Origin: Fibrobacteria bacterium
GTDB taxonomy: Bacteria > Fibrobacterota > Fibrobacteria > UBA11236
Direction: 5' to 3'
DNA: 58,734 bases
Assembly (NCBI GenBank): GCA_050486505.1
Contig: JBJHDK010000008.1
Location: 1 to 58,734 of the forward strand
A model generated the notes under the pieces. It ran no database searches. It was not told the DNA's origin and saw only the letters and a list, made by a program, of their open reading frames with translations. This document shows, in pieces, positions 31,049 through 46,652 of the stretch. The position numbers were made by a program, and so were the translations under genes. Each line of letters starts with the position of its first letter. Position 1 is the first letter of the stretch.

Positions 31049-32038
31049 ATGCCCTCCCTGCCGAAGATGCGCGCCCTCTCCGGATTCCTGCTGACAGCAG
31101 GACTTTTTGTTTCGGTGTCCCCAAGCGCAGCCGCACCCGCGCAGGACGCCCCCCATCTTTCCCTCTTCGGTCGCATCGCGGAAAGCACGCGGCCCTCGAC
31201 CATTTCTTACGGCCCCGGAACGGTGCATCTCCCCGGAAGTTCCCTTGCGCCCGACAGCATGGCGCTCAGTTTCGAGGCGCGGGTCATTCCCCGGTTCACG
31301 GTGCTGCGGGCCGTGGAAGAGACCGGGCCGCTGGCGGGAAGCTGGTGGCTCACCGTGGATGCGGAGTTCATGGTGCGGCGCCATGCGAACCTTCCGTCCA
31401 ATCCCGTGCGCACGCCGGGGTACCGCCCGGGTGCCACGTTGCACTACGCTCCGCCCGGCGCCTCGCCGGAATCGTTCTGGCATGTCAGCGGCACGTGGTT
31501 CCACTGGTCGAACGGGCAGGAGGGGGAACTCTTCGTCGAGGGGCCGCTCGGTCCGGAGCTCAATACCGTGAACGGGAGCTTCAGCCTGTGGGGGGCGGGT
31601 GCAGCCCTGCACGCGCATCCCTCCGGGCGGTTCATGCCTGCGCACCTGGCGCTGAGGGGGGAGGCGTATTTCTTCAGGGAGGGCTGGCTCGCCGACGTGT
31701 ATCCCCACATGGCGGTGACACTCGAGGCCTTCGGGAAGGGGCGGCATTCCGGGTGGGCCGGGTTTTCGGGGGACACGCGCTGGTGGTCCGAACTGACGTG
31801 GCGGCCCTCGCAGGGAGGCGTGCTCGCGGAGCACTACGGGCCTGCGCCGTTCGGGTTTATGACGATGGCGGCGTATCGCCCCGATTGGCGTCCGGCGTTT
31901 CTTCCCTTTCGCGTGCATACCGGAAGTTTCTTCGCGTTCACACGGCTGTACCTTGGCCCGGATGAATACAACGTGCGCTTCGGCGAGCCGGTGCATCGCA
32001 TCGACTTCGGGTTTCTGGCGGGGCCTGGTGTGCGGTAA
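31049..32038 (+). CDS. Hypothetical outer-membrane protein with an OMPLA-like HxSNG motif
   Basis: Signal peptide; SNPVRTPGYRPG and FHWSNGQ; beta-strand-rich. Confidence 0.55.
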   Translation: MPSLPKMRALSGFLLTAGLFVSVSPSAAAPAQDAPHLSLFGRIAESTRPSTISYGPGTVHLPGSSLAPDSMALSFEARVIPRFTVLRAVEETGPLAGSWWLTVDAEFMVRRHANLPSNPVRTPGYRPGATLHYAPPGASPESFWHVSGTWFHWSNGQEGELFVEGPLGPELNTVNGSFSLWGAGAALHAHPSGRFMPAHLALRGEAYFFREGWLADVYPHMAVTLEAFGKGRHSGWAGFSGDTRWWSELTWRPSQGGVLAEHYGPAPFGFMTMAAYRPDWRPAFLPFRVHTGSFFAFTRLYLGPDEYNVRFGEPVHRIDFGFLAGPGVR

Positions 32039-32073
32039 CCCGTGCGTGGTGGCATTAGCTACGCTTTGACGGC

Positions 32074-33204
32074 ATGCCGGCCACACGCCCAAAAACGCTT
32101 GACGATTACCTCACGACCCCCGAAATGCAGCTGCTTCTCGCGTGTTGCGGCCGGGTCACGGGCGTCACGGACGAACCGGAAATCACCCGCGCGCTCGCGC
32201 GTGACTTCGATGAGAACACTTTCCTTGAATGTTGTCGCGATCACCGTCTGATCGCGCTGGTCTTCCGCCATCTGGTCAAGCCGTATCCGGATCGCTTTTC
32301 CCCGGAAGTTTACGCGGCCTTCGAGGGGGAATATCGGCAGTTGCAAATGGCCCACCTGCGCATGTCGAAGGCGGTGGTCGACCTGCATCGTGAAATGGGG
32401 GGGCGCGGTGTGCATCACCTCTTCCTCAAGGGACCGGTTCTCAATCAGCGCCTGTTCGGGAACGAGTTTTTGCGCTATTGCGGCGATGTCGACATGCTGG
32501 TCGATCACGGAAGCTTCGAGGAAGCCCATGCCGGGATGCTGCGGCTCGGGTACATCCCCCTGTTGCTCTGGTGGCAGCGGGCATTCGGTTTGTCCGTCCG
32601 CCGGACCCACCGCAAGGACGTGACCTACGTGCATCCGCCCTCGGGAGTTTTCGTGGAGATGCATTGGAAGACCGACCTGGTGGAGGTGTCGCTCGAGGGT
32701 TTCGACTGGAAGCGCGACGTGTCGATCTGCAGATTCCACGGCGCCGACGTGCCCGTGTTTCCGGAAGACCGGGACTTTCTTTATCTCTGCCTGCATGCGG
32801 CCAAGCACCATTGGGCGCGTTTTCGCTGGCTGCTTGACGTTGCCGTGATGCTGCGTCGCCCCGGATTCGACCCCGGCGTTGCTCTGGCCTTGGCGGAGCG
32901 GTACGGGTTGGGGGGCGTGGTGGAAGAAGCGCTGTGGATGTCGCAGCGCGTCTTCGGCGTCGAAGCCGCACCGGCGCCCGGGCGCGCCCTTGAAGTCGCG
33001 GGCCGCCGCGCCGAGGAGCGCTTTCTGGCCGACCGGTTCGCGTTCAAGCCGCTGCGCCCCCTGATTCGCACCTGGCACGGGGCGAAGATTTATCCGCGTT
33101 TGGGGCAAAGGGTTACATTCTGGCGCGTATGGCTGACGGAATGGGTGCTGGTGAAGCTGCCGGGGTTGCCTCCGAAGAGGGCAAAAAGCAAATGGTCTCC
33201 CTGA
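32074..33204 (+). CDS. Nucleotidyltransferase family protein (lasso-cluster associated)
   Basis: FLKG, RYCGDVDMLV, VEMHW, LHAAKH, RFRWLLDV. Confidence 0.85.
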   Translation: MPATRPKTLDDYLTTPEMQLLLACCGRVTGVTDEPEITRALARDFDENTFLECCRDHRLIALVFRHLVKPYPDRFSPEVYAAFEGEYRQLQMAHLRMSKAVVDLHREMGGRGVHHLFLKGPVLNQRLFGNEFLRYCGDVDMLVDHGSFEEAHAGMLRLGYIPLLLWWQRAFGLSVRRTHRKDVTYVHPPSGVFVEMHWKTDLVEVSLEGFDWKRDVSICRFHGADVPVFPEDRDFLYLCLHAAKHHWARFRWLLDVAVMLRRPGFDPGVALALAERYGLGGVVEEALWMSQRVFGVEAAPAPGRALEVAGRRAEERFLADRFAFKPLRPLIRTWHGAKIYPRLGQRVTFWRVWLTEWVLVKLPGLPPKRAKSKWSP

Positions 33205-34952
33205 AGCTGAAACGAATCGGCTCGTTCCTCGAGTACTACCGCGCCCTTGCCCGTTTTGCCCCGGTTCGGTTCGCACTGGGGTGCGTGATGTCCGTTGTCA
33301 GTGCCTTGCTCTCGGGCATCGGCCTGCTGATGGCGGTTCCCTTGTTGCATTTCGCCGGATGGCTGCCCGGTGAGGAGCAGGGCGGACTGGTCGGGCACGT
33401 CCTGAAAAGACTCCCTGAGCCCGGGGGTGCGCTTCCGCTCTTCGCGACGCTGGGAGCCTATGTCGTGCTCGTCGCCCTGTCGGCAGGATTCACCTACAGG
33501 TGGCAACTGTTGATGACGCACCTGTTCCAGGATTTCCTGTTTCGGCTTCGCACCGGCCTGAACGAATCCGTGGCACGCTGCGAGTGGTCGCACCTTGCGA
33601 CCAAGCGACTTCAGGAACTGCAGCACATGATCAACGTGGGAATCGATCGGGTCTCTGTGCTGACGCAGCATTCGATCCGGATGACTTCCGAAATTCTGCT
33701 GATTCTGGTGTTTTTCATCATTGCACTGCTTGTGTCCGTTCCGATGGCGTTGATCGCGGTCGCGATCTCCGTCATTCTTTTCCTGGTGCATATCCCCGGT
33801 CGCTCCTACCTGTTCGGCAAGGCTTCGCTTGAGGCGAGCCAGAATCTCTATGCCGAACTCTCGCGGTTTCTGGAGGGCGTCAAACCCGCCAAGGCAGGGG
33901 GGCTCACGGACAGGTATGTCGAGCGCTATGCGTCGCTGCTGCATGGGGAGTTGACTGTTCAACGCCGTTTCATTCGGGGGCAGGCCAAGACGCGATTTTC
34001 TTTTCAGGTGGCGGTCGCGGGAGTGTTTGCTGCTGTCTTCATTGTTGCCGTGAACTTTTTGGGCGCTTCGGCTGCATCCTTGCTGGTTCTGCTCCTGCTT
34101 CTGTCGCGCTTGATGCCGCATGTTCTTGCCCTGTTGGAATCGGTGCGCCAAACAATGAATGCGTTGCCGGCCTATGGCGAGATGCGCCTCATGCTTTCCG
34201 ACCTCACCGCGCATCGCGAGGTAACAACGCACTCAGACCGGCTTCACCTGCAAAAAGCGATCCGCCTCGAAGACGTGCGCTTCACGTACCCTGGGACGAC
34301 GGAGGCAGGCCTTCGCGGCGTGACATGTGAAATCCCCGCGGGCATGATCACGGCGGTGGTCGGGCCGTCCGGCGCGGGGAAGACCACGCTGGCCGACCTT
34401 CTTCTCGGCCTCATCATCCCGCAGGCGGGCCGCGTGACCGTGGACGACGTGCCGTTGTCTTCCGGTAACGCCGGGGGGTGGAAGGCGCGCGCCGCTTATG
34501 TTCCGCAGGATCCGTTCCTGTTTCATGATTCGATCCGCGCCAATCTCGTTTGGGCGGATCCAGGGGCATCGGAGGAGCGCATCTGGAGAGCCCTCGAGGA
34601 TGCCTCCGCGGCCGGTTTCGTGAGGGCGCTTTCCGCCGGTCTTGACACGCCGGTCGGTGATCGCGGCAACCGCTTGTCGGGAGGCGAGCGCCAGCGGCTG
34701 GCGATCGCGCGGGCGCTGTTGCGCGACCCTGAGGTTCTGGTTCTTGACGAAGCCACGAGCGCTCTCGACACTGTCAATGAGGAAACGGTTCATGCCGCGC
34801 TGCGCCGCTTGCGCGGCAAGGTGACGATCGTCCTCATCAGCCACCGACCCGGGGCGCTCGGACTCGCCGATCATGTGATCATGTTGGAGGGGGGGCGGGT
34901 TGCCCGGCCAGGGACTTCGGAGGGGGATTCTTCGTCGTCGCCTTCCGGGTGA
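33192..34952 (+). CDS. ABC exporter (TMD + NBD), lasso peptide D-type
   Basis: TM domain, GPSGAGKTT, LSGGERQR, LDEATSALD. Confidence 0.9.
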   Translation: MVSLKLKRIGSFLEYYRALARFAPVRFALGCVMSVVSALLSGIGLLMAVPLLHFAGWLPGEEQGGLVGHVLKRLPEPGGALPLFATLGAYVVLVALSAGFTYRWQLLMTHLFQDFLFRLRTGLNESVARCEWSHLATKRLQELQHMINVGIDRVSVLTQHSIRMTSEILLILVFFIIALLVSVPMALIAVAISVILFLVHIPGRSYLFGKASLEASQNLYAELSRFLEGVKPAKAGGLTDRYVERYASLLHGELTVQRRFIRGQAKTRFSFQVAVAGVFAAVFIVAVNFLGASAASLLVLLLLLSRLMPHVLALLESVRQTMNALPAYGEMRLMLSDLTAHREVTTHSDRLHLQKAIRLEDVRFTYPGTTEAGLRGVTCEIPAGMITAVVGPSGAGKTTLADLLLGLIIPQAGRVTVDDVPLSSGNAGGWKARAAYVPQDPFLFHDSIRANLVWADPGASEERIWRALEDASAAGFVRALSAGLDTPVGDRGNRLSGGERQRLAIARALLRDPEVLVLDEATSALDTVNEETVHAALRRLRGKVTIVLISHRPGALGLADHVIMLEGGRVARPGTSEGDSSSSPSG

Positions 34953-34962
34953 TCAGGCGCTG

Positions 34963-35577
34963 TTACCGGTTTGCGGCATTCGGACGAAAATGGAAGAACC
35001 AGGTCTTCCAGCGTTCACCCTTGGGGCCTAGATACCAACTCTCCGCCCTTCGGACCTCGGCGAACTTTTCAGCCAGCAGGGCGAGCTTCGGACCTTCGCT
35101 TCCTTGCGGGAGCGTCAGGAGGTAGTGCCCATCGGGGCGAATCAATCCCGAAATGCTTTCCACATAGTCGGAGAAAAACATTTTCGCCTGGCCCGCGAAG
35201 CAGCCGCGATCCACGATCACGTCGAAACGCCTGTCGAGTTTCGTATGAAGGACGTTGTCCTTCACGAACTCGACGTGCACACCGCAGCTTTCCGCATTTT
35301 TTTTCGCCTGGGAAAGACTGAAAGTCGAAACATCCGTCGCGGTCACATTGAACCCCAGCTCGGCCATCCGGATGGCCTGCCATCCGACGCCGGTTCCCAC
35401 ATCAAGCAAGGTTTCTCCATGGATGGATCCGCCTTTGAGGGTCGCGGCGAGATCCTCGTCCAAGGTTTCGATTTCCGCCATGAAGGCGTCCTTCGGGTCG
35501 ACGCCCTTGTTGCGGTTGACGTACTTGGCCTCCCACATCAATCCGAGAATCGCATGGCGGCGTTTTCTTTCGTCCAC
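34963..35577 (-). CDS. Class I SAM-dependent methyltransferase
   Basis: LLDVGTGVG, TATDVS, FDVIVDRGCF. Confidence 0.85.
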   Translation of the reverse strand: MDERKRRHAILGLMWEAKYVNRNKGVDPKDAFMAEIETLDEDLAATLKGGSIHGETLLDVGTGVGWQAIRMAELGFNVTATDVSTFSLSQAKKNAESCGVHVEFVKDNVLHTKLDRRFDVIVDRGCFAGQAKMFFSDYVESISGLIRPDGHYLLTLPQGSEGPKLALLAEKFAEVRRAESWYLGPKGERWKTWFFHFRPNAANR

Positions 35578-35763
35578 GGGCGTCCCTCACATGGGCCGTT
35601 TCGGCCCGTAAATTCGGTGTAAAAGTATATTTCCCGGCGTTCACGTTATAAAACGCGAGTTTGAGGTGTCACTTCTCCGTGCAGGCGGAGACGCGCGCGG
35701 TGGCCGGCCGGCGGGTTCGACGGCGCAGGGGTTCCGTGCGATTCGATGGGGAAAGAGGAAACC

Positions 35764-36066
35764 ATGAGCGGGCATCCGTTGGAAAACCTGGAACTGCAGA
35801 CCCGGCTGGAGCGCAATGCTGAAATCTTCGCCGCCGATGTTGACGATGAAATGGTCATGATGGACGGCGAGCAGGGGTTGTACTTCGGCCTGAACACCGT
35901 GGCCCGCAAGATCTGGGAATTCCTGGATCGGCCTCGCACCTACGGCGAGCTCTTGAAAGCACTCGAAGAATCCTACGACGTGGACGCCGAGCGTTGTCGC
36001 GCCGATGTGGAGCCCTTTCTCCGCAAGATGTTGGAACACGGGCTTGTTCGTGTGCATTCTGAATGA
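35764..36066 (+). CDS. PqqD-family RiPP recognition element (lasso B1)
   Basis: DVDDEMVMMD...YFGLNTVARKIWEFL...YDVD...CRADV..FL..M...GLV; RBS GAGG. Confidence 0.92.
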   Translation: MSGHPLENLELQTRLERNAEIFAADVDDEMVMMDGEQGLYFGLNTVARKIWEFLDRPRTYGELLKALEESYDVDAERCRADVEPFLRKMLEHGLVRVHSE

Positions 36067-36506
36067 TATTGACAGGGCTTGCAAGAGTTTTGGGAAAACG
36101 CGGGCTCGCCGGGCTCTACCTGGAAGCACTGATGGAAATGGCGTGGTGCAAGGTGCTCACGGTCTTCGTGCCTTTCGGTCGCTGGGCGCACCGCCAGGGC
36201 CGCTTCCAGAGTGAGACGCTCAAGGATGACAGATCCGCGGAGCTGCCCCGCATCCAGGCGATCCGGGGAGCGATTCTGCGCATCGCGCGCCGCGCGCCTT
36301 GGAGAAGCAAGTGTCTCGATCAGGCCCTGGTGATGCAGCGCATGCTGGCCCGTCGCGGTCTTCCATCCACCACGTACTACGGCATGAAGCGCGATGCGTC
36401 CGGCAACTGGATCGCCCATGCGTGGGTGCGCTGCGGAAGCATCTGGGCGATCGGGTATCAGCATGGTGAGGAGTACACCGTCGTAGGCGCGTACGCGCGA
36501 TTGTGA
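36063..36506 (+). CDS. Lasso peptide leader peptidase B2 (transglutaminase-like)
   Basis: SKCLDQAL (Cys) and AHAWV (His); coupled to B1. Confidence 0.92.
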   Translation: MILTGLARVLGKRGLAGLYLEALMEMAWCKVLTVFVPFGRWAHRQGRFQSETLKDDRSAELPRIQAIRGAILRIARRAPWRSKCLDQALVMQRMLARRGLPSTTYYGMKRDASGNWIAHAWVRCGSIWAIGYQHGEEYTVVGAYARL

Positions 36507-36513
36507 AAGCGAT

Positions 36514-37722
36514 TCAGGCTGGTTCGACCGATATGCTGTCCGGATGTGCCTGGTTGCCGAATTTGTAGCTGATAGTGAAGCGATCCCCGGGGGACACTCC
36601 GCGAGTTTCCGGCAGGATCCATACCGGGTTGGACCAACTGTTGTCCTCTCCAGACTCATTCGGATGAGTGCTCAAACGGATGCCGCCGCCGAGATCAAGA
36701 GTGAAGTATATGAACAGCCCGTTCCATTTCCCCGTGGCCAAGATTGACACGCTTTCCTTGACGTGGGGCAGTTCGGCTCCACATCGTTGAAAGTCGATGT
36801 CCGACAGTAGAACCGGATCGCTCAGCATGGGCCACTTTCGGATGGAATGCGCTCTTGCGAAAAAACGGGTGGACGTGTTACTTGAAAACCGCTCCAAAGG
36901 GCTGAAGTCGAATCCGTACCACTCCTGCCAGCGTCCTAATCCCGTTGGCTCAAATATGTTGCTCTCCAATTTGCCGTCGCTGATTGTAACCGGGATGCCG
37001 AACACTCGAAGGCGTTCAGGAATCAGCCGGGCGTCAGGCTTAAGAAAGCGTTTTCGTGCATCGGCGGTATAAAACAAAACATTCTCCCCGAATGGATCAT
37101 TGCCGATGATTTCACTAATCAACACGTCCGCGGGCTCGGGAAGGTCGACTCTGGTCGACCACCCCTCGATGATTTGAATACGATCGCCGTATCCATTAGC
37201 GATAAAGTTCTCGCGTGCGGCATATCCAATGCGGTTTGCCTCAATCGCGTACACGCGCCTCGCGCCTGCTCGCGCAGCCGCCATGGCGAGTATTCCCGTT
37301 CCGGTCCCGATCTCTACCACGGTGTCTCCGGGGCGAACAACCTTTTCGATCGCCTTCAGATAGCTTTCAGTTCGAGCGCGATCATTGAGCATGGAGATAT
37401 GAACGGGCGCGGAACCGAATCCGCCCGTTGCGAGTGCGGGGATCTCTTGGCCTTTCGTAATCAATATTCCCGCTGCATAAAGTCGGCGGACTTCCCCCAT
37501 CAACTCGACCATGTCCAAAGGGTTCTTTGCAAACGCCTTTAAGGCTTCAAGTGCACTGGAGACGGTCGTTGGCCTGGAGAAAGCATTCAGCATGGCCAGT
37601 GTATGTATCCCGCCGGCATAGCGATCCCCCTGAACCCTGATCTGTAGTCTGGTGCCGCCCTCCAGCACCATGTGGATCGACGATGCGCACTGCAGAACGG
37701 TGGAAGGGGTCAATTTTTGCAT
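36514..37722 (-). CDS. PRMT-like SAM methyltransferase with N-terminal RRE-like domain
   Basis: HISMLNDRAR..Y, VVEIGTGTGIL, VYAIEA, DVLISE..G....E; visibly lower GC than flanks. Confidence 0.8.
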   Translation of the reverse strand: MQKLTPSTVLQCASSIHMVLEGGTRLQIRVQGDRYAGGIHTLAMLNAFSRPTTVSSALEALKAFAKNPLDMVELMGEVRRLYAAGILITKGQEIPALATGGFGSAPVHISMLNDRARTESYLKAIEKVVRPGDTVVEIGTGTGILAMAAARAGARRVYAIEANRIGYAARENFIANGYGDRIQIIEGWSTRVDLPEPADVLISEIIGNDPFGENVLFYTADARKRFLKPDARLIPERLRVFGIPVTISDGKLESNIFEPTGLGRWQEWYGFDFSPLERFSSNTSTRFFARAHSIRKWPMLSDPVLLSDIDFQRCGAELPHVKESVSILATGKWNGLFIYFTLDLGGGIRLSTHPNESGEDNSWSNPVWILPETRGVSPGDRFTISYKFGNQAHPDSISVEPA

Positions 37723-37857
37723 GCGGGCAAAGGATAACAACAGGTTTGTGCACCGTACTTGGGGGCCTCAAGTCCATGATGACTATATTCGTGCGGCCGA
37801 AAGTCGGGGGGGTACGCGTCCGGGCCGTACTCGGACACAGATTCGCGGGACTCTTTC

Positions 37858-38742
37858 TTGAACCGTTACCGTGCCTTCGGGCTTTCCATTGCATCGAAGT
37901 TCTCCCTGCCGGAGCTTCTCCCCGAAGGGGATGCCGGAGCCTCCGTCGATCTATGGGTCAAGGAGTGGGTGGAAGGCGAGGAAGGGGCGCCTTCCTTCAC
38001 TTCCGGAGACGAGGCGACGGGAAGCCTCTACCACCTCTCCGTTTCGGGAGTGGCCGATTTTCGGATCGAAGACGGCACACGCATTCATTTTCGGCGCGCC
38101 TCGGAAACGGTCGATGATGCGATCGTGCGTTTGTTCTTGTTGGGTTCCGGGTTCGGGTGTGCGCTGCAGCAGCGCGGGTGCATCGTGCTGCACGGGAATG
38201 CGGTGACCACGGACGGGGAAACCTGTCGCATCGTGGTGGGGCATTCCGGTGCGGGCAAGTCGACATCCGCCGCCCTTGCCTACAAGCAGGGAGCCCGGAT
38301 CCTCGCGGACGACGTCTGCGCCATCACGCTGGATTCGAACGGGACCGGGTGGGTGCACCCTGCGTACCCCCAGATCAAATTGTGGAAACGCAGCGCGGAT
38401 CTGTTGGGAATCTCCGTCGAGGGACTGCGGAGGATTCGTCCCTCCGATGAGAAGTATGCGTTGCCGATTCGCGACCGCTATTGGCCGACTCCGCTGCCCC
38501 TTGCGGAAGTCGTCGAATTGAGCGCGGAGAACACGGAGGAAACCCCGTCGCGGGGCTTCGACAAGGCGCGTTGCCTTGCCGAGCACAGCTATCGCAACTG
38601 GTTTCTTTCGAACATGGGTATCAAGGCCGAATACATGGACAAGTTGATGCGGCTTGTTTCCCGGGTCGAGGTGCGCCGCGGTGTGCGTGCCGATCTTTCC
38701 GCCCTGGGTTTTACGGCAAGGCAGGGAGCAGGTGAAGCATGA
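37858..38742 (+). CDS. HPr kinase-like lasso peptide kinase
   Basis: LHGNAV, GHSGAGKST, LADDV, YPQIKLW; coupled to the cyclase. Confidence 0.88.
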   Translation: MNRYRAFGLSIASKFSLPELLPEGDAGASVDLWVKEWVEGEEGAPSFTSGDEATGSLYHLSVSGVADFRIEDGTRIHFRRASETVDDAIVRLFLLGSGFGCALQQRGCIVLHGNAVTTDGETCRIVVGHSGAGKSTSAALAYKQGARILADDVCAITLDSNGTGWVHPAYPQIKLWKRSADLLGISVEGLRRIRPSDEKYALPIRDRYWPTPLPLAEVVELSAENTEETPSRGFDKARCLAEHSYRNWFLSNMGIKAEYMDKLMRLVSRVEVRRGVRADLSALGFTARQGAGEA

Positions 38743-40574
38743 ACGGTTTCAGCGGGGTGTGGTTTTTCGACGGTCGCCCGGTGGATGCGACATTGCTTTC
38801 CCGATGCGCGTACCGGAGCCCCATGTGGGAGCCCGATCATCTTGGCATCCGGTTGTTCGATGGCGCGGGCTTCACGTCCACCCAGCGCTTCGTGATGCCG
38901 GAAGAGCCGCACGCGCTCATGCCCTTCGAGGATGTGGAGTCGGGGTGCGTCATCGTCGCGGACTCCTTGCTTGCGCATCGCGAAGAGCTTGCGGATGCAT
39001 TGGGAGTCGCGCATGCAGCGTCCGATTGCGAACTGATCCTCGCCGCCTGGAAAAAGTGGGGTGCGGAATGTCCGCGTCGCCTTTTCGGGCACTTTTCCTT
39101 CTTTATCTGGGACCCCCGGAATCATCGGGCTTTCGCCGCCACGGATCATTTCGGCATGCGCCCTCTCTACTATGCCTTCGAGCCGGGGCGGGGCGTGACG
39201 ATCTCGAACACCATGGAGCCTTTCCGGATTCTTCGGCAGGGGCTCACCATCAATCTGAACCAGTTCCAGCATTTCGCGGTGGACACCATGCCTGCCGGTG
39301 AAACGTGCTACCGCGAAGTGGCCAAGCTGCCGGCGGCTCATTCCTTGCTCGTGACTCCGGAGCGTGCGCGTACGCGTCGCTACTGGCGCCTCAAGGAACA
39401 GCGTCATCGGCTTCCGCAGTCGACCCGCGAAGACTATTACGAGGCATTTCGTGAACGGTTCGCGCGGGCGGTGGGGACGTATTTGCGCACCGAGCACCCT
39501 GTTCTGGCATACATCAGCGGGGGGCTGGACTCGTCGTCGGTGGCGTCGATGGCCGCGAAGCTGCTGGGCGAAGCGAACCGGAACATTTTGGGGTTCACGG
39601 CGATTCCCCATACGCTGGAGGGGTCGAGTCGTCGGCGCGGATGGTACTATCACGAATTGCCCGTCGCGCGCTCCATTTCGGAACAGTACCCCAATGTCCT
39701 CCATCACGTCTATCGCACCGACCCCGATGCGGATCCGTTGCGCGAGTTGTCGGCCCTGCATTCCCAAGTGGATCATCCGGCACGCAACGTGATGAATTGG
39801 CATTGGATCAACGGCGCGTTCCGCCATGCGATCGCCAACGGTTCGCGACTGACCCTGGGTGGGGACCGGGGCAATGGAAACATTTCCTGGGATGGGGCGG
39901 ACTTGCGCTCGCGGTACAACCTGCTGCGCGGATTCGTCCGGAACTGGCCGTTTGTCCGGCGGCTCCTGCCGGATGCCTATCTCGAGGTGGTGAACCCCGG
40001 TGTGTTGCGGGTTCCCGCAGTTCGGGCCGCGTTGCGCAAGCGTGGGTGTACGCTCGACCTGCACTACTGGATGCTGGCCATGGAGCCGTTGACTCCCGGC
40101 TTCGCCTACATCCGGCACCCTGCCCTGTACCACGGCGTGGAACATGCCGACCCGACCTCAGACGTGCCGCTGACCGAGTTCTGTTTCAACTTGCCGGAAT
40201 GGGTGCACTATCGAATGCCGCGGCGGGAAAGGCGGCCACAACATACGCGATTGTTGGTTCGCGAAGGGCTCGCGGGGATCGTTCCAGAGGCGGTTCGCTT
40301 CAATGTGAACCGGGGTGAGCAGGCGGCGGACGCCTACCTGCAGTACAATCGTCACGGGCAAGCCTGGAGGACGCGCCTCGATTCCATGTCTCCGGCTGCC
40401 GCCTCGGTCTTCGAGCGGTGCATTGACCGCGCCGCTCTCCGCCGCATTTTCGACAACTACCCCCATATTGCGGAGCCACCGGATGAGGAGACGGAGTTCA
40501 CGGTGTGCATCGTGTTGGCGCGCGCACTCGCCGCCGCTGATTTTATCGACTTTCTCGATCGGAACTCCGGTTGA
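38739..40574 (+). CDS. Lasso cyclase (asparagine synthetase homolog)
   Basis: TDHFGMRPLYY, SGGLDSS; lacks the N-terminal catalytic Cys of true AsnB (MNGFSG). Confidence 0.9.
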   Translation: MNGFSGVWFFDGRPVDATLLSRCAYRSPMWEPDHLGIRLFDGAGFTSTQRFVMPEEPHALMPFEDVESGCVIVADSLLAHREELADALGVAHAASDCELILAAWKKWGAECPRRLFGHFSFFIWDPRNHRAFAATDHFGMRPLYYAFEPGRGVTISNTMEPFRILRQGLTINLNQFQHFAVDTMPAGETCYREVAKLPAAHSLLVTPERARTRRYWRLKEQRHRLPQSTREDYYEAFRERFARAVGTYLRTEHPVLAYISGGLDSSSVASMAAKLLGEANRNILGFTAIPHTLEGSSRRRGWYYHELPVARSISEQYPNVLHHVYRTDPDADPLRELSALHSQVDHPARNVMNWHWINGAFRHAIANGSRLTLGGDRGNGNISWDGADLRSRYNLLRGFVRNWPFVRRLLPDAYLEVVNPGVLRVPAVRAALRKRGCTLDLHYWMLAMEPLTPGFAYIRHPALYHGVEHADPTSDVPLTEFCFNLPEWVHYRMPRRERRPQHTRLLVREGLAGIVPEAVRFNVNRGEQAADAYLQYNRHGQAWRTRLDSMSPAAASVFERCIDRAALRRIFDNYPHIAEPPDEETEFTVCIVLARALAAADFIDFLDRNSG

Positions 40575-40862
40575 ACGGGTGAGCTGATGTCGGGTGATAT
40601 CGGGATCAGTACCACACGATGATGCGCTGACGTGGTCGCACATGATCCGCATCCTCGAAAATGATTGTTAATTGACCATCTGCACGAATTCCGCGACTCT
40701 GTCATAAAATCGCGAAGTTGTCATTTAGCCAAAATGTTTCTCCCCGTTTGTCTTTATGTGAAACGGTCAGCCTGTTAGTTTCCCGGCGTGTCCGTTGCAT
40801 TGCGTCTCAGTTTCATTCATTGGAAGCGTGGGTTGGCTTGTAAAAAGCGATACGAGATCTGA

Positions 40863-41048
40863 ATGCGTTTGATCAAAAAAGAAATCAACACTCAGAGCCA
40901 GAACAGTCAATCTTGGGTTGCACCCGTTGTCGAGGCCATCGCAGTCTGGGAAAACACCTTGGCGGCCAACAACTCCTCTTCCGATGGTCCTCTTTGTCTT
41001 GGATCGATGGGCCCTGCCACGAACTGTCCTGTGGAGCCGCTCTCTTGA
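40863..41048 (+). CDS. Lasso peptide precursor A1
   Basis: Leader WVAP...ENTL (Thr at -2); predicted core AANNSSSDGPLCLGSMGPATNCPVEPLS. Confidence 0.9.
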   Translation: MRLIKKEINTQSQNSQSWVAPVVEAIAVWENTLAANNSSSDGPLCLGSMGPATNCPVEPLS

Positions 41049-41341
41049 TCTGTAGGGAGCAAGGTTCCGTCATTCAAGTCAAGTGAGTCGGTTCCCGGCA
41101 CGAATTGGCGTCACCTTGTGGCGTCGCATAACGCGTCGCCACAACTTTATGCCATAATGTCATTTGATTTGGCACAAGTACTCAATTATGCCATTAAAGC
41201 GAAGATTGACATTTAGTCATATGATTTCGCGCATTTGTGGCCTTTTCGTGCAGCAATCGCCTCCTACTTTTTTCGCAGGAAATGGGAAAAATGTCTCGAA
41301 AGCTCGGGAAAATGCCGTTTTCATCACAAAAAGGGAATAAG

Positions 41342-41527
41342 ATGCGTTTTTCGAATCAAACCGAATCCGTCACTCAAAACCAGAAGAATCAGCCCTGGGT
41401 CGCCCCTGTCGTCGAGGCCATCGCCGTTTGGGAAAACACCTTGGCCGCCAACAATTCGACGGCCGATGGCCCGCTTTGTACTGGATCGATGGGGCCGGCC
41501 ACGAGCTGCATCGACCCGATCTCCTGA
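41342..41527 (+). CDS. Lasso peptide precursor A2
   Basis: RBS AAGGGA; leader WVAP...ENTL; predicted core AANNSTADGPLCTGSMGPATSCIDPIS. Confidence 0.9.
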   Translation: MRFSNQTESVTQNQKNQPWVAPVVEAIAVWENTLAANNSTADGPLCTGSMGPATSCIDPIS

Positions 41528-41778
41528 CGTCTTCCCGGGGTTCGGGTGATCTCTGATCCCCTGTCGCTCAGGCCGATAAATTTTGTCCTTATGTCACGCG
41601 TGGCGACTGACAACCGTGTCAGGCCGTTATTCGTTGTTTTGCAATATTGGCAATAGTTTGCGTGTTCCTGATTCCTCGAAAGCGCATTAAGATTGATGCT
41701 CGAAATCGCCTCGCCGTGACACACGCGGATTCGCGAGATCCATTCAGGCTCCCTTGGGGGAGAGAAAAGGGAACGAGC

Positions 41779-41967
41779 ATGCAGAACACAAACATGAACA
41801 GCGAATCCGTTTTTGCGACGGAGAGCCTCAAGTGGCAGGCCCCCGTCGTCGAGACCATCGCGGTGTGGGAGAACACCTTTGCAGCGAACGACTCTGCTTC
41901 GGATGGCCCGCTGTGCCCGGGTATGATGGGTGCCGCCGATCTGTGCTCGGTCGATCCGTCTTCCTGA
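41779..41967 (+). CDS. Lasso peptide precursor A3
   Basis: RBS AAGGGA; leader WQAP...ENTF; predicted core AANDSASDGPLCPGMMGAADLCSVDPSS. Confidence 0.9.
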   Translation: MQNTNMNSESVFATESLKWQAPVVETIAVWENTFAANDSASDGPLCPGMMGAADLCSVDPSS

Positions 41968-41991
41968 CCCACTCATGCGTTGAATTATTCC

Positions 41992-42023
41992 AAGCAGGCC
42001 GCCCAAGGGGCGGCCTGCTTTTT
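41992..42023 (+). terminator. Intrinsic terminator after precursor A3
   Basis: AAGCAGGCCGCCC...GGGCGGCCTGCTT stem followed by a T tract. Confidence 0.88.
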
Positions 42024-42059
42024 GTCGCCAGAGCTGAAGTTCTTGGGGGGGCGACCGAG

Positions 42060-42686
42060 CTATGCCCGGTGCACCCAGCAGTTGATCGCGAAGCGCGAAT
42101 CTTCGAACCGGCCGCTCGGACACGCGACGGGGAGCACTCCGTGCGGGTACCACGACGGGAAAAATGCCAAGGTGTCGTGGTCCGGCAGAATGTCGACATG
42201 CGGCCGGTTTTCCGGGGACCCCTGAACGGGGGAGTAGAGCCGAAGCGTCCCCCCCGAAAATCCCTTGGGAAATGCGTGAAAGTAATAGACGCCGCTGATG
42301 GCGCGCTGGGTGTCGCTGCTTTTCACCTTCACGAACGTGTCGGTATGCGTCGTAAAGAACGCGCCGTTACCGTGCGCGGCCATTTCGAACTCGAAGGCCG
42401 CGGGGGTGAAGGCGGCAACGCCAAGCTGCGAGGTCATTTGAGGCAGGCTTTGTTTGAGGCGTTCCTTGAGATGTTCCTTGATCCCGTGGAGGTCTTTCAG
42501 GATCAGGGAAATCCGTTGCCTGGGATCCACGGCGCTGTGTTCCCCATACCCGGTTTTCGAAGGTTCGAAGCGCTCCCGGTTCGCAAGCGCGAAGTCGAGC
42601 AACTTCCGCGCACCCTCCGCGCCCAGCCAGTCCCGAAGAATCCCGTGCGGCGGCGGGCGGTTGAGGAGTTTTTCGAGCGAGCTCAC
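42060..42686 (-). CDS. 2OG-Fe(II) oxygenase (prolyl-hydroxylase-like)
   Basis: HTD, GGTLRL, FFPSWYPHGV, SRFAINCW; GTG at 42686 overlaps the upstream stop. Confidence 0.85.
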   Translation of the reverse strand: MSSLEKLLNRPPPHGILRDWLGAEGARKLLDFALANRERFEPSKTGYGEHSAVDPRQRISLILKDLHGIKEHLKERLKQSLPQMTSQLGVAAFTPAAFEFEMAAHGNGAFFTTHTDTFVKVKSSDTQRAISGVYYFHAFPKGFSGGTLRLYSPVQGSPENRPHVDILPDHDTLAFFPSWYPHGVLPVACPSGRFEDSRFAINCWVHRA

Positions 42687-44011
42687 CCCGCCCTCACGCA
42701 CTTCTCGTACAACGTCGGAAACCGCCCCTCGGGGTCGTATTTCGCCTTGAGTGCGCGGGCGCCGTCGCCGTTGTAGACGCGGTCGAATTCGGCCTCGTCC
42801 ATGAACGACGACGAGTAGAGCATCTTCACCCCGCCGAGGTCGAGGCACTTGCGGTCCATGATGCGGGTGGCGCCGAAGTCTTCCCCCTCCGACTTGCGCA
42901 CGCGGCAATAGCAACCCAGGTTGAAATACAGCGTATCGGGTTCCACCGGGTAAAGCGTCGGCCGGTGCGGGGTGCGAATGGCCACCGCCAGCCAGGGCTT
43001 GCCGTCCAGGTCGACCGACTCCAGCGCGAAGCGGAGCAGCTCGCCGGCGCGGTCCCACGGCACCTCCCAGTCCTGGATGAGCAATTCCTTGCCGTCCTGC
43101 TTCTTGATTCCGAGGCGCTCCTGCAGGTGCAGCCAGCGCTTGTAGAACCCCGAGTGCCGCATGAATCCGGGGGCCCAGCGGCGCATCAACCGGTAGGGTA
43201 GGGTCTCGGGGATGTTCCAGAACCATTCCGGATCGTAGCGGAAGAGATAGTCCTTCGTGGCCAGCCACAGGTCGCGCCGCTCGCCGACCAGCTTGTAGTA
43301 CACGTTGCGGCGCACGATGTCGTCGGCGCGGGGGGCCTCTTCGATGTAGCGCGACACCGTCAGCAGGAACCGGTCGGGCGCGTACATCAGGGCCTCCACG
43401 AAGTCGGCGTCGGCGCGCTCCGTGGCCTCGCGCATGGCCGCGAGGAAGGCGTCGGTGTCGGCGAAGGTCTCGGTGCGCAGGTGCACGAAGGGTTTGGCAG
43501 GCTCGAGGCGCACCTTCGCGCGCAGGATATAGCCGAGCGTTCCGTAGGAGTTTCCCAGCGCGCGGAAGAGGTCCGCATGCGCGTTGTCGGGGGTGGCGAC
43601 GACGATCTCGCCGGTGGGCAGCAGCACCTCCGCTTCGAGCAGGGAATCATGCACGAAGCCGTGGCGGTGGCAGTTCGATTCGATGCCGATGCCCACGGAC
43701 GCGCCGCCGATGGTGATGTGCTTCAGCTCGGGGGTGACGAGGGGCGCGAATCCGTGCGGCACGGTGGCATCCACGATGGATTCGAAGGTGGCGAGCCCCT
43801 CGACGTCGAGGACGCGGTTCACGGGGTCGAGCCCGAGGACTTCGTTGAACCCGCTCAGGTCGACGAAGGTCACGTCCTTGCCGCGCTTGCGCGGCGTGTA
43901 GCGGAAGAGGTTCGACGCGGTGCGCTTGCGCAAGGCGAACTTCCCGCCGCCCGCGGCGATGCGGGCCAGCAATTCGCGCTTCTTCGCCGCATGCCGTTCG
44001 TGGGTCGTCAT
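42683..44011 (-). CDS. FAD-binding oxidoreductase (TmsA/BfaA/Rv3719-like)
   Basis: SNLFR, PELKHITIGGA..GIGIES, DYLFRYD..WFW, KMLYS, KAKYDP..RFPTLYEK. Confidence 0.82.
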   Translation of the reverse strand: MTTHERHAAKKRELLARIAAGGGKFALRKRTASNLFRYTPRKRGKDVTFVDLSGFNEVLGLDPVNRVLDVEGLATFESIVDATVPHGFAPLVTPELKHITIGGASVGIGIESNCHRHGFVHDSLLEAEVLLPTGEIVVATPDNAHADLFRALGNSYGTLGYILRAKVRLEPAKPFVHLRTETFADTDAFLAAMREATERADADFVEALMYAPDRFLLTVSRYIEEAPRADDIVRRNVYYKLVGERRDLWLATKDYLFRYDPEWFWNIPETLPYRLMRRWAPGFMRHSGFYKRWLHLQERLGIKKQDGKELLIQDWEVPWDRAGELLRFALESVDLDGKPWLAVAIRTPHRPTLYPVEPDTLYFNLGCYCRVRKSEGEDFGATRIMDRKCLDLGGVKMLYSSSFMDEAEFDRVYNGDGARALKAKYDPEGRFPTLYEKCVRAG

Positions 44012-44015
44012 CGCG

Positions 44016-45176
44016 TCACCGCACCGTGGCGTAGCCGCCGGGCACGCCGTTCTTCGACAGCACAAGCTGCCACAACTGGTTCTTGCGGCAACGGAAGGAG
44101 CCCGCGCAGATTGTGAGGTAGTATACCCACATGCGGTAGAAACGTTCGCCGCGCGTCTCCCGGTGCTTCGGCCAGTTCTTTTTGAAGTTTTCGAGCCACG
44201 ACATCAAGGTGGGGTCGTAATCGGGTCCGATGTTGTGCCAGTCCTCGAGCACGAGCAGGTTGTCCATGGCCGCACCGAGCTGGGCCGGCGACGGGAGCAT
44301 GGCGTGCGGGAAGATGTACTTGCCCAGCCAGGGTTCGATCGATGTGACCGACTTGCTCCCCCCGATGGTATGGACAAGGGCGAGTCCCCCCTCCTTGAGC
44401 GAACGGTGGATGGTCTCGAAGAAGGTCCGGTAATTCCGGGCCCCCACATGCTCGCACATCCCGATCGACACCACACGGTCGTAGGTTCCCGCCGCCTCGC
44501 GGTAATCCTGATGGCGGATCTCGACGGGGAACTCCTTGTTGTACTCCCTGCCGTACGCCACCTGCTCCTTCGAGATGTTGTAGGCGGTGACGTGGCAACC
44601 GTAGCGTTCCGCGGCGAAGCGCGCGAACCCGCCCCAACCGCAGCCGAGCTCGAGCACGGTCATCCCGGGCCGCAGGCCGAGCTTGCGGCAAATGAGGTCG
44701 AGCTTGTTGTCTTGCGCCTCCTCCAGCGTGGCCGCCCGTCCGCGCGGGGTGTTCCAGTAGGCGCAGGTGTATTGCATGCGCGGGTCGAGCATGTCGCGGT
44801 AGAAGGCGTTGCCGAGGTCATAGTGGAGTTCCGCGACGGCCTTTGATCCGGATTTGCTCTGCCGGTTCATCAGGCGGGACTTCAAAAGATCCCACGCCAG
44901 CGGCCAGTTGAACCGCAGTTTCGTCTCGAGGCGTGCGCCCATGGCCTTGGCGAAGGCCACGTCGAGCTGGTCGCAATCCCACCAGCCGTCCATGTAGGCC
45001 TCGCCCAACCCCAGGGTGCCCTGTGCCATGATGCGCTGGTAAAGCGCCGGGTTGTGGACGCGGAGGTCCCAGGGACGGTCACCGTTGATCCGGATGTCGG
45101 CCTGGGCCAGGAGGTTCTGGATGAAGCGCGCGGATGTGGACGTGGTTTTGGATGCGCGTGAGTCGTTCAAGAGCAT
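44016..45176 (-). CDS. cfa: Cyclopropane fatty acid synthase-family methyltransferase
   Basis: GLGEAYMDGWW, HYDLGN, LELGCGWGG, VSIGMCEHVG, KYIFP, RMWVYYL. Confidence 0.9.
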   Translation of the reverse strand: MLLNDSRASKTTSTSARFIQNLLAQADIRINGDRPWDLRVHNPALYQRIMAQGTLGLGEAYMDGWWDCDQLDVAFAKAMGARLETKLRFNWPLAWDLLKSRLMNRQSKSGSKAVAELHYDLGNAFYRDMLDPRMQYTCAYWNTPRGRAATLEEAQDNKLDLICRKLGLRPGMTVLELGCGWGGFARFAAERYGCHVTAYNISKEQVAYGREYNKEFPVEIRHQDYREAAGTYDRVVSIGMCEHVGARNYRTFFETIHRSLKEGGLALVHTIGGSKSVTSIEPWLGKYIFPHAMLPSPAQLGAAMDNLLVLEDWHNIGPDYDPTLMSWLENFKKNWPKHRETRGERFYRMWVYYLTICAGSFRCRKNQLWQLVLSKNGVPGGYATVR

Positions 45177-45644
45177 GGTGTTTCCGAAAGCAAAAGGTTT
45201 TTGCGGAGGTTCAAGCTAAGTAACAGTCAAAAAATAAGGCTTGAAGCATTCAGCGGGGTTGATTTTTGCGTTTGAAATCGAAAGTGCAAAAGAGGAGTGG
45301 GGGCTGCGCATGCCGGCAACCCTTCGCTTCGGGCGCTGCCTCCATGAAAGTCCCGTCTCGGGAATCACTGGCAGTACGTCGCCGCGTCAAGAAACCCGAG
45401 CGGAGCCGCAATTGACTTTATGACATTCATCCGCATTAATGTTGCCAAATGACTCTATTTTGTACCCATATTTAATTGCAGCTGGTATTTTCATCGCGTT
45501 GGAAAACGCGCAAAAGTGCAATTTAATTGAAATATTCTGCCAATATGTCAATTTTACGCTATAATGTAAAAAAATCACAGTAATGCCATATAGTCAATAT
45601 TGGTACCCTTGGACGGTCGTGGCGTCGTGGGGATTTTATATGGC

Positions 45645-46652
45645 ATGGACATCAACACATTAAGGGTTGAACACCCGGAATCACAGGCGAACCGGGATGG
45701 AAGTGGTCCGCTCGCGGTGGCCGGTTCTCGTGGCATTCACGGAACCACCAAGGTTCGGCCCCGCGCATTTTCGGGCGGAAGGCTCGTCCGGGGCCTGCTC
45801 GTTGTTCTGGTTCTGCTTTTGTCATCGGCTTGCTCCCGCAACAGAACAGCCGTCGGGCCCGAGGATGATGCCCGCCTCGTTCTGGGTGTGCAGCTCGAGA
45901 ACGTGAACCTTCGCGCGGGTGAAGGTGCGGGGCTCGGCAAGTCCTCGGAAATCATTTTGCAGCACTTGATTCTGACGTTGACCTCGAGCGTGGAATCCGA
46001 TCCGGTGATCCGCGACACGATCCTTGCGGGGGCGGAAGGCTTCTCGCCCAACGCCATGATGCCGCAACAGGTTTCGGCGAGTTACAACGTCAGAGCTTTG
46101 CGCAGCTGGACGATCGATGTCCAGACCCGTGACATCAACGATTCCCTCATTCATTTCGCAACGACGACTGTCGGGAACCTCGGCCTGGGCGAGACCCGCG
46201 GGGTTCTCCTGAACCTTGCATCGCGCTTCGCGGTTTACTCGGCGGGCTTCGTGCTGCCCGACAGCATCGGCTCGGTGACGGGAGAGTTCCGGGAGCAGCT
46301 CAAGGTCAACCGCTTCGTCATCGTTGTGGATGGGGATACCGTGCGGGATACCACGCGTCCGGCACAGCAATACTTTGCTCCCGCCCCCGCGCGGCATGTC
46401 GTGGACTACAACTACGCGCGCGTCGATGCGAGCCACACCGTGGCGCTTTACGTCTACGGGGACCTCAACGACTGGCCGGCAGGCTTACCCCTGTACAGCG
46501 GTGCGTTCGTCATTTCTTCTCCCGATTCCAGCTACACGCCCGTGCTGGCCTGGACAGGCCCGAGCACGGGAATGCCCGGCCTCGAGGTCACTCTTGGCGC
46601 CGTCAACGTCGTGAACATCGAGCCGGTGGTTCCGGTAAATCCTTTGCCCTGA
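45645..46652 (+). CDS. Lipoprotein, paralog P1 of a putative pilin family (start uncertain)
   Basis: Lipobox LSSAC; GLGKS; VRALRSWTI; LPDSI; LAWTGPSTG; C-terminal LEVTLGAVNVVNIEPVVP. Confidence 0.75.
   Translation: MDINTLRVEHPESQANRDGSGPLAVAGSRGIHGTTKVRPRAFSGGRLVRGLLVVLVLLLSSACSRNRTAVGPEDDARLVLGVQLENVNLRAGEGAGLGKSSEIILQHLILTLTSSVESDPVIRDTILAGAEGFSPNAMMPQQVSASYNVRALRSWTIDVQTRDINDSLIHFATTTVGNLGLGETRGVLLNLASRFAVYSAGFVLPDSIGSVTGEFREQLKVNRFVIVVDGDTVRDTTRPAQQYFAPAPARHVVDYNYARVDASHTVALYVYGDLNDWPAGLPLYSGAFVISSPDSSYTPVLAWTGPSTGMPGLEVTLGAVNVVNIEPVVPVNPLP

Follow-up and report, generated by a model that had tools for sequence, protein, structure and literature searches.

We have analysed positions 1-58,734 of contig JBJHDK010000008.1 of a Fibrobacteria bacterium (assembly GCA_050486505.1), here called the window. 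It contains a complete lasso peptide cluster, and in it a methyltransferase gene, encoded on the minus strand, separates B2 from the kinase gene. The encoded protein appears to combine a recognition element (RRE) of the kind found in the production of ribosomally made, post-translationally modified peptides (RiPPs) with the catalytic core of a protein arginine methyltransferase (PRMT). The gene occupies positions 36514-37722 and encodes 402 residues followed by a stop codon, as delimited by the list of open reading frames (ORFs), family searches and the start that best fits the homologs. The longest ORF begins with a TTG at 37740 (36514-37740, 408 residues), a further ATG is present at 37671 and the public gene call (P0001) has 385 residues. 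An alignment with 22 homologs favours the ATG at 37722, in exact agreement with the coordinates given in the first-pass annotation of this DNA. No clear ribosome-binding site was seen at the ATG at 37722 or that at 37671. The RRE-like winged-helix domain comprises residues 1 to ~92 (37447-37722, minus strand like all parts of the gene). It is followed by the Rossmann part that binds S-adenosylmethionine (SAM), residues ~105-245 (36988-37410), with the double-E loop E204-E213 (SEIIGNDPFGE, 37084-37113), and by the PRMT beta-barrel, residues ~246-402 (36517-36987).

The lasso genes proper are found on the plus strand. B1 (35746-36066), a PqqD-type RRE protein (Pfam PqqD, 2.4e-19; NCBIfam lasso_PqqD), is followed by the leader peptidase B2 (36063-36506; Transglut_core3; NF033537 with 77.9 bits against a cut-off of 33). 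Beyond the methyltransferase gene, and transcribed divergently from it, lies the gene for an HPrK-like kinase (37858-38742), which has weak matches to Hpr_kinase_C and HprK_rel_A and clusters with lasso-linked homologs. Then come the cyclase C (38739-40574; Asn_synthase and GATase_7; NF033535, 1.9e-63) and three precursors that are 54-72% identical to one another, A1 (40863-41048, 61 residues), A2 (41342-41527, 61 residues) and A3 (41779-41967, 62 residues). The leader of A1 extends to T32-L33 and its core reads AANNSSSD...PLS. All three leaders have the invariant segment W18-x-A-P-V-V-E-x-I-A-V-W-E-N-T32 (a WxxPxV...Tx motif) and the cores follow the pattern AAN(N/D)S..DGPLC.G.MG.A..C..(E/D)P.S, with Asn3, Cys12, Cys22 and the C-terminal Ser invariant. 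The core AANNSSSDGPLCLGSMGPATNCPVEPLS and its two paralogs contain no Arg and no Lys, as had been claimed at first inspection, and no His either; Arg2 is present in the leaders of A1 and A2 and absent from that of A3. Cores ending in Ser, an HPrK-like kinase and an NTP_transf_5 gene are found together in this cluster; the combination is familiar from lasso peptides that are phosphorylated (paeninodin-type) or carry further decorations (pseudomycoidin-type).

Judged by sequence and by the predicted structure, residues ~105-402 of the methyltransferase are a true PRMT core. Pfam recognises PrmA (2.1e-13) in the Rossmann part and PRMT_C (PF22528, 29.4 bits against a cut-off of 27) in the barrel. 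A profile of 129 family members gave 87 matches in the PDB; the best 60 are nearly all named PRMTs (8rbk is unnamed), with E-values from 7e-60 to 1e-36, and PRMT7, PRMT4.2, PRMT8, PRMT6, PRMT1, PRMT9, PRMT2, CARM1 and PRMT3 are matched at 7e-60 to 1e-43. The matches listed by Foldseek for the model of the methyltransferase are all PRMTs, with TM-scores by target length of 0.69-0.84 over 305-346 columns of single-core chains and an identity of 22-28%. Motif I (VVEIGTGTG) and VYAIEA indicate a class I SAM-binding fold; among the 129 sequences G139, G141 and V135 are invariant and E161 nearly so. E204 and E213, also nearly invariant in this set, align with the double-E of PRMT7 and of PRMT4.2 (SEWMGY...RE), the pair of glutamates by which PRMTs clamp the guanidinium. 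The first-pass annotation had singled out this double-E loop and an H..ML.D..R motif as PRMT hallmarks; the latter is present as HisMLnDraRT in a helix H108-x-x-M-L-x-D-x-x-R-T, and Pfam, the PDB profile and Foldseek agree on the assignment. The equivalent of the THW loop reads N-S-W, with W363 nearly invariant across the family while the Thr and His positions vary (S/H).

The methyltransferase thus has in common with the eukaryotic PRMTs (PRMT7, PRMT6, PRMT1/8, PRMT3, CARM1) the Rossmann and beta-barrel parts, motif I, the H-x-x-M-L-x-D-x-x-R-T helix, the spacing of nine residues within the double-E and the Trp of the THW loop. It differs from them in being bacterial and encoded in a RiPP cluster, in not keeping the Thr and His of the THW loop and in facing cores devoid of Arg, so that Arg methylation is putative here; its recruiting module would be an RRE in place of an SH3 domain, a zinc finger or the like. 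The sequence does not look decayed, deviating from the consensus at 4 of 75 conserved columns compared with a median of 6 in the 129 sequences. A predicted complex of the full enzyme with precursor A1 and SAM scored 0.01, had no controls and is used for no claim.

The N-terminal part is, in the predicted structure, an RRE by fold and not by sequence family. AlphaFold2 models it with confidence (mean predicted local distance difference test score of 87.0 for residues 1-100 alone and 95.2 for the whole protein) as four strands (residues 9-12, 17-21, 25-30 and 33-37) followed by three helices (39-47, 54-64 and 68-83). A VIA-align search of the model of residues 1-100 against 48,161 PDB chains returned 16 rows at Z>=8.0, 12 of which we take, judging by their titles, to be RRE-bearing RiPP proteins: TigE (Z 11.6), MccB (10.6), TbiB1 (9.2), a lasso B1 protein (6jx3, 8.6) and PqqD (8.2), together with MibB, MadB, ThcOx, NisB, TbtB, the PbtF RRE and the sactipeptide enzyme 5wgg. 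These matches span the whole domain, strands included. Winged-helix regulators also appear in the VIA-align list, at Z 5-9. Foldseek places LynD, TruD, TigE, ThcOx and TbiB1 first, albeit with weak E-values (best 1.8e-3). The fit to the RREs of lasso B1 proteins and PqqD (TbiB1 5v1u/5v1v, 6jx3, PqqD 5sxy) has Z-scores of 8.2-9.2 and a root mean square deviation of 2.7-2.8 over 80-89 residues, with the same strand-strand-strand-helix-helix-helix fold; unlike them, the domain is fused to an enzyme and not standalone, it has an extra N-terminal strand and its binding to leaders is only predicted.

At the level of sequence the relationship emerges from profiles. When a profile of 107 N-terminal sequences (100 residues) was compared with one of 11 lasso B1 proteins by hhalign, they aligned over 87 columns with a probability of 88% (E 3.1e-6), pairing AFSRPTTVSSALEAL with FLDRPRTYGELLKAL and RRLYAAGIL with LRKMLEHGLV. 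A likeness of the N-terminal ~90 residues to the B1 protein of this cluster had been proposed on the basis of these very segments, and a winged-helix RRE fold, on which that proposal was staked, is indeed what the model adopts. When the methyltransferase was compared directly with B1 of this cluster (35746-36066) by BLASTP, the best E-value was 0.11, in an unrelated stretch. Neither PqqD (PF05402), nor lasso_PqqD, nor an RRE model was matched by the whole protein in Pfam and NCBIfam at E<=0.01, and none of 27 N-terminal domains of the family matched Pfam PqqD at E<=1.

The two-domain protein belongs to a large family, with 744 relatives at E<=1e-30 among representatives clustered at 50% identity. 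Because matches typically span 95-99% of its length, the two-domain form is the rule. For the best homologs, P0002 (56% identity) and P0003, the contigs are 2.4 and 1.5 kb long and give no neighbourhood to compare. The analysis covered 104 loci of the family, of which 80 come from species genomes and ~24, mostly short ones, from metagenomes; the latter were obtained with an alignment as query, and a metagenome scan with the single protein had given no relative. The N-terminal domain is present in 95 of these loci. At least 39 of the 104 have a lasso marker within the fetched flank (LasC in 29, an HPrK-like gene in 32, B1 in 26, NTP_transf_5 in 21 and B2 in 16), a lower bound since many loci are short. 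The association with lasso and thioamitide clusters recurs across many phyla, and in the sister loci L031, L078 and L042 the methyltransferase gene shares its strand with HPrK or C and either overlaps that neighbour or lies directly next to it. A link of the homologs to RiPP loci, on which the first-pass annotation had made its proposal depend, is therefore found with lasso as well as with thioamitide clusters. A quick maximum-likelihood tree of 89 near-full-length members has lasso-linked rows in most of its parts, and two well-supported derived clades with other contexts.

One derived clade consists of five Streptomyces/Nonomuraea rows from thioamitide clusters (L043-L045, L066, L072). They are 34-38% identical to the window protein over residues 6-394, match the hidden Markov model (HMM) of the N-terminal domain at 1e-20 to 1e-22 and fall in the same tree. 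The gene order is a precursor ending in SVMAAAATVAFHC, APH, HopA1, APH, flavoprotein, methyltransferase, YcaO, PhyH and a papain-like protease, so that the methyltransferase is in the tsaG/tvaG position. The L043 cluster, whose precursor ends in ...AFHC, illustrates the likeness: 35% identity over residues 6-394, an E-value of 1.2e-20 with the N-terminal HMM, PrmA and PRMT_C, and a RiPP setting. According to the accessible part of Eyles et al. (PMC8153245), deletion of TsaG removes the bis-N-methylation of a His in the thioamitide; the protein is described there as pfam06325, and a word search of the main text for RRE gave no occurrence. TsaG is of the same family as the lasso-linked methyltransferase, not of the same function: its loop reads D...M where that of the window reads E...E, its target is a His while the cores here have none, and its cluster is of the YcaO/thioamitide and not of the lasso type. 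The other derived clade comprises 20 Solirubrobacterales-type rows (L051-L080, e.g. L070:9504-9968) which keep the double-E and adjoin DUF6325 and unnamed small genes, without lasso genes. The unnamed genes encode ~77 and ~197 residues. A DUF6325 stretch, VLVWENTWA, weakly resembles the leader segment AVWENTLA (hmmsearch E 2-11), probably by chance.

The double-E loop differs between these groups. It is E...E in the lasso-linked majority, the window included, and D...M in the TsaG clade. A second PRMT-fold family of ~380 residues, which we call MT2, is also found in lasso clusters of the kinase type (L004 6321-7469, L012 8793-9932, L034:5677-6636), and L004 and L012 have both this gene and the RRE-PRMT gene; the window has no MT2. 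MT2 likewise has PrmA and PRMT_C and lies in clusters with an HPrK-like kinase, with ~29% identity over 248 residues, but the N-terminal RRE is missing and neither glutamate is retained (SD..G....R/Q/Y). Towards the C-terminus its candidate cores are rich in Met (GMGMKDKT, GGMQFKTG, SNMMRR and PSMMQKACL; loci L170-L226). To judge from these sequences, a changed target in this superfamily would go with a changed double-E loop, and the loop in the window is unchanged. In an all-against-all clustering B1 proteins joined the methyltransferase component, an artefact of the chimeric ORF L025 4051-4704 (minus strand) and not a sign of similarity. In this ORF an MT2-like fragment (residues 1-75) is followed by a PqqD-type domain (100-190), and it is probably a remnant or a frameshift.

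Precursors in family-linked lasso loci were collected with regular expressions for the leader motif and the matches curated by eye. The core contains at least one Arg in 22 of the 23 loci with a convincing candidate. It often stands in a Gly-rich context (DGGRGS, TRGN, DGRSGR, RGGRGR), with RG or RGG in L004, L012, L069 and L078. The only Arg-free exception, L037, is also the only lasso-linked member compared that has lost the second Glu of the loop. Five Gaiellaceae loci were omitted from the count owing to an uncertain boundary between leader and core; if the leader motif defines that boundary their cores contain a conserved Arg, and if the regular expression does they contain none. These loci (L019:15381-15587, L020:7273-7527, L021:17434-17757, L023 and L027, minus strand) encode MKITFE.P.V.DFG.IS.HTF-MPTPP...GHKGF.NCR.ET.NCELSHP.DGGGGSP, a canonical leader with a putative core that has no acidic residue at positions 7-9.

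As a control we used 60 HPrK-type lasso loci from 401 Acidobacteriota genomes, HPrK-like genes being too sparse in the phylum of the window itself (3 of 296 genomes, this one included). MT2 is the commoner of the two methyltransferases there (18 loci against 3 with RRE-PRMT), and 39 loci have neither. Among the loci with neither, 8 of 17 curated candidate cores contain an Arg; against an interim count of 21 of 22 for the family-linked loci, Fisher's test gives p = 0.0009. An HMM built from the three precursors gave only matches with E>1 among the small ORFs of related loci, a result void for A3, which had been read out of frame (from 41780 instead of 41779); the tblastn negatives for A3 are void for the same reason.

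The cluster as a whole seems foreign to this genome. Its G+C content is 55-62% across the cluster (window positions 32000-46000) compared with 64-67% in the flanks, the methyltransferase gene was found in none of 40 genomes of relatives and HPrK-like genes are rare in the phylum, which together suggests horizontal acquisition. The methyltransferase gene is inverted relative to the lasso genes, as is that of a small class I SAM-dependent methyltransferase (34963-35577, minus strand, 204 residues; Pfam Methyltransf_31/25/11) situated between the ABC exporter and B1; in most sister loci, unlike the window, the methyltransferase gene is not inverted relative to its lasso neighbours. The exporter gene (33129-34952, plus strand; ABC_tran and ABC_membrane) is preceded by the NTP_transf_5 gene (32074-33204, plus strand; Pfam 1.1e-40), which encodes a nucleotidyltransferase-like protein and co-occurs with the family in related loci. 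A scan of 35500-42100 for promoters and terminators found nothing above the shuffled expectation, and the listing of public sequencing runs contained no RNA data. Downstream of the precursors, a 402-residue ORF (42060-43268, minus strand) matches the 2OG-Fe(II) oxygenase domain of Pfam in its last ~105 residues only and overlaps, in another frame, a flavin adenine dinucleotide-binding gene (42683-44065, minus strand). The real oxygenase gene at this place probably encodes ~200 residues.

Taken together, the data are best explained by a two-domain RiPP tailoring enzyme consisting of an RRE (residues 1 to ~92) and a PRMT-type SAM-dependent N-methyltransferase (~105-402) with an intact double-E loop. 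By analogy with solved RRE-leader complexes, the RRE would hold the conserved leader segment W18-T32 of precursors that are still linear, and lasso-cluster members of the family would methylate leader-bearing precursors before B2 and C act. To go by the pocket motif and by how often the sister cores contain Arg, these members most likely make omega-N-methyl-arginine, and the family is probably a leader-guided Arg N-methylase, that is, a lasso modification not yet described. Fold, pocket and the way operons are built in the sister loci agree with such a picture, as does the presence of Arg in the sister cores. We found no report of Arg-methylated lasso peptides or of an RRE-PRMT architecture in the open-access literature, which leaves most subscription journals uncovered. 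The known lasso methyltransferases StspM/LasF, which form a C-terminal methyl ester, and TceM/LihM, PIMT-type enzymes which convert an Asp via its methyl ester to aspartimide, are also SAM-dependent and tailor precursors. They are however O-methyltransferases of other families that act on carboxylates and not on nitrogen, and in the sources as far as accessible no fusion to an RRE is reported for them. The accessible part of a 2022 review (PMC9266682) likewise lists only C-terminal and Asp O-methylation among lasso methylations and places the action of StspM on the linear precursor, ahead of B1, B2 and C.

For the window itself this leaves a pocket of the Arg type facing precursors without Arg in their cores. 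The reading we prefer, with a probability of roughly 0.4, is that of a catalytically competent enzyme for which A1-A3 offer no canonical site. The gene would have come, as a tailoring gene that travelled along, with a cluster acquired horizontally and rearranged, and the enzyme would show at most marginal activity here, for example on Arg2 in the leaders of A1 and A2. The cluster is an outlier, with the same pocket but no Arg, and does not indicate that lasso-linked members in general target residues other than Arg; the enzyme here may be idle or may act on another atom. Several points weigh against this reading. The gene is intact and well conserved, which argues for selection and hence for a function here. 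Arg is absent from the cores of all three diverged precursors, so that on their side the mismatch would be an old one. In L037, the other case without Arg, the pocket is altered while that of the window is unaltered, and Arg2 is missing from the A3 leader. The Arg comparison itself involves related, non-independent loci, hand-curated cores and a control from a single phylum, and is supportive rather than conclusive.

The enzyme could instead be active on A1-A3, its RRE delivering the core to a pocket that methylates an atom other than a guanidino nitrogen, such as the side-chain amide of Asn3, a Cys thiol, a carboxylate or a backbone nitrogen. We consider this, the main idea of the first-pass annotation, possible, if at somewhat unfavourable odds. 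It would account for an intact, family-typical gene placed between core lasso genes and for cores with an invariant Asn3, Cys12, Cys22 and C-terminal Ser; the family has already been retargeted once, to His in TsaG, and MT2, having lost the double-E, must act on something else within lasso clusters. These same cases also speak the other way, the known or suspected non-Arg examples (the TsaG clade, L037, MT2) all showing a changed double-E loop, whereas both glutamates and the other pocket motifs of the window protein match the Arg-associated majority. The double-E carboxylates of PRMTs suit a cationic guanidinium, for which a thiol, a carboxylate or a phosphate would be a poor replacement. That a leader-guided PRMT with an intact Arg pocket methylates a non-guanidino atom of Arg-free precursors, for example the carboxamide nitrogen of Asn3, we hold to be doubtful; if true, it would mean chemistry new to the PRMT fold as well as a novel lasso peptide modification.

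Two further explanations move away from the cores. The true substrate might be an Arg-bearing peptide or protein elsewhere, either a precursor encoded in an unassembled part of the genome or some protein of the cell, and the N-terminal domain would recognise this partner. The assembly is in 125 contigs. Large clades of the family, such as the 20 Solirubrobacterales-type loci by DUF6325, are found away from lasso genes, so that a lasso leader would not have to be the ligand of the domain in every case. Completeness of the genome is nevertheless 99%, and a search of it with A1 at E<=10 returned only the three known precursors and one weak match in a 282-residue frame, no further paralog. The methyltransferase is moreover single-copy and located inside the lasso cluster, and no candidate partner was found, all of which makes an outside substrate unlikely. 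It is less probable still, to the point of being barely credible, that the N-terminal domain is a generic winged helix for dimerisation or DNA binding and the enzyme a housekeeping bacterial PRMT merely neighbouring lasso genes. The lack of PqqD membership at the sequence level and the regulators in the fold list would fit such an origin, and in the accessible portion of the RRE-Finder preprint methyltransferase matches are set aside as false positives. Against it stand top fold matches that are overwhelmingly RiPP RREs and cover the whole domain, the hhalign probability of 88% to lasso B1 proteins and an association with lasso and thioamitide clusters that recurs across many phyla; absence from 40 relatives also argues against a housekeeping role.

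A widespread bacterial family, which includes the genetically characterised TsaG, joins a predicted RiPP leader-binding domain to an Arg methyltransferase core of the eukaryotic type, and N-methyl-arginine, a lasso modification not yet reported, is predicted for dozens of clusters. Whether the double-E is kept or lost would provide a simple sequence rule for sorting Arg-directed from retargeted members. The window cluster, with an apparently Arg-type enzyme and Arg-free substrates, is a natural test case of this rule. If the enzyme is active on A1-A3, the PRMT pocket would be more versatile than thought; if it is not, tailoring genes may persist in lasso clusters without a site to act upon.

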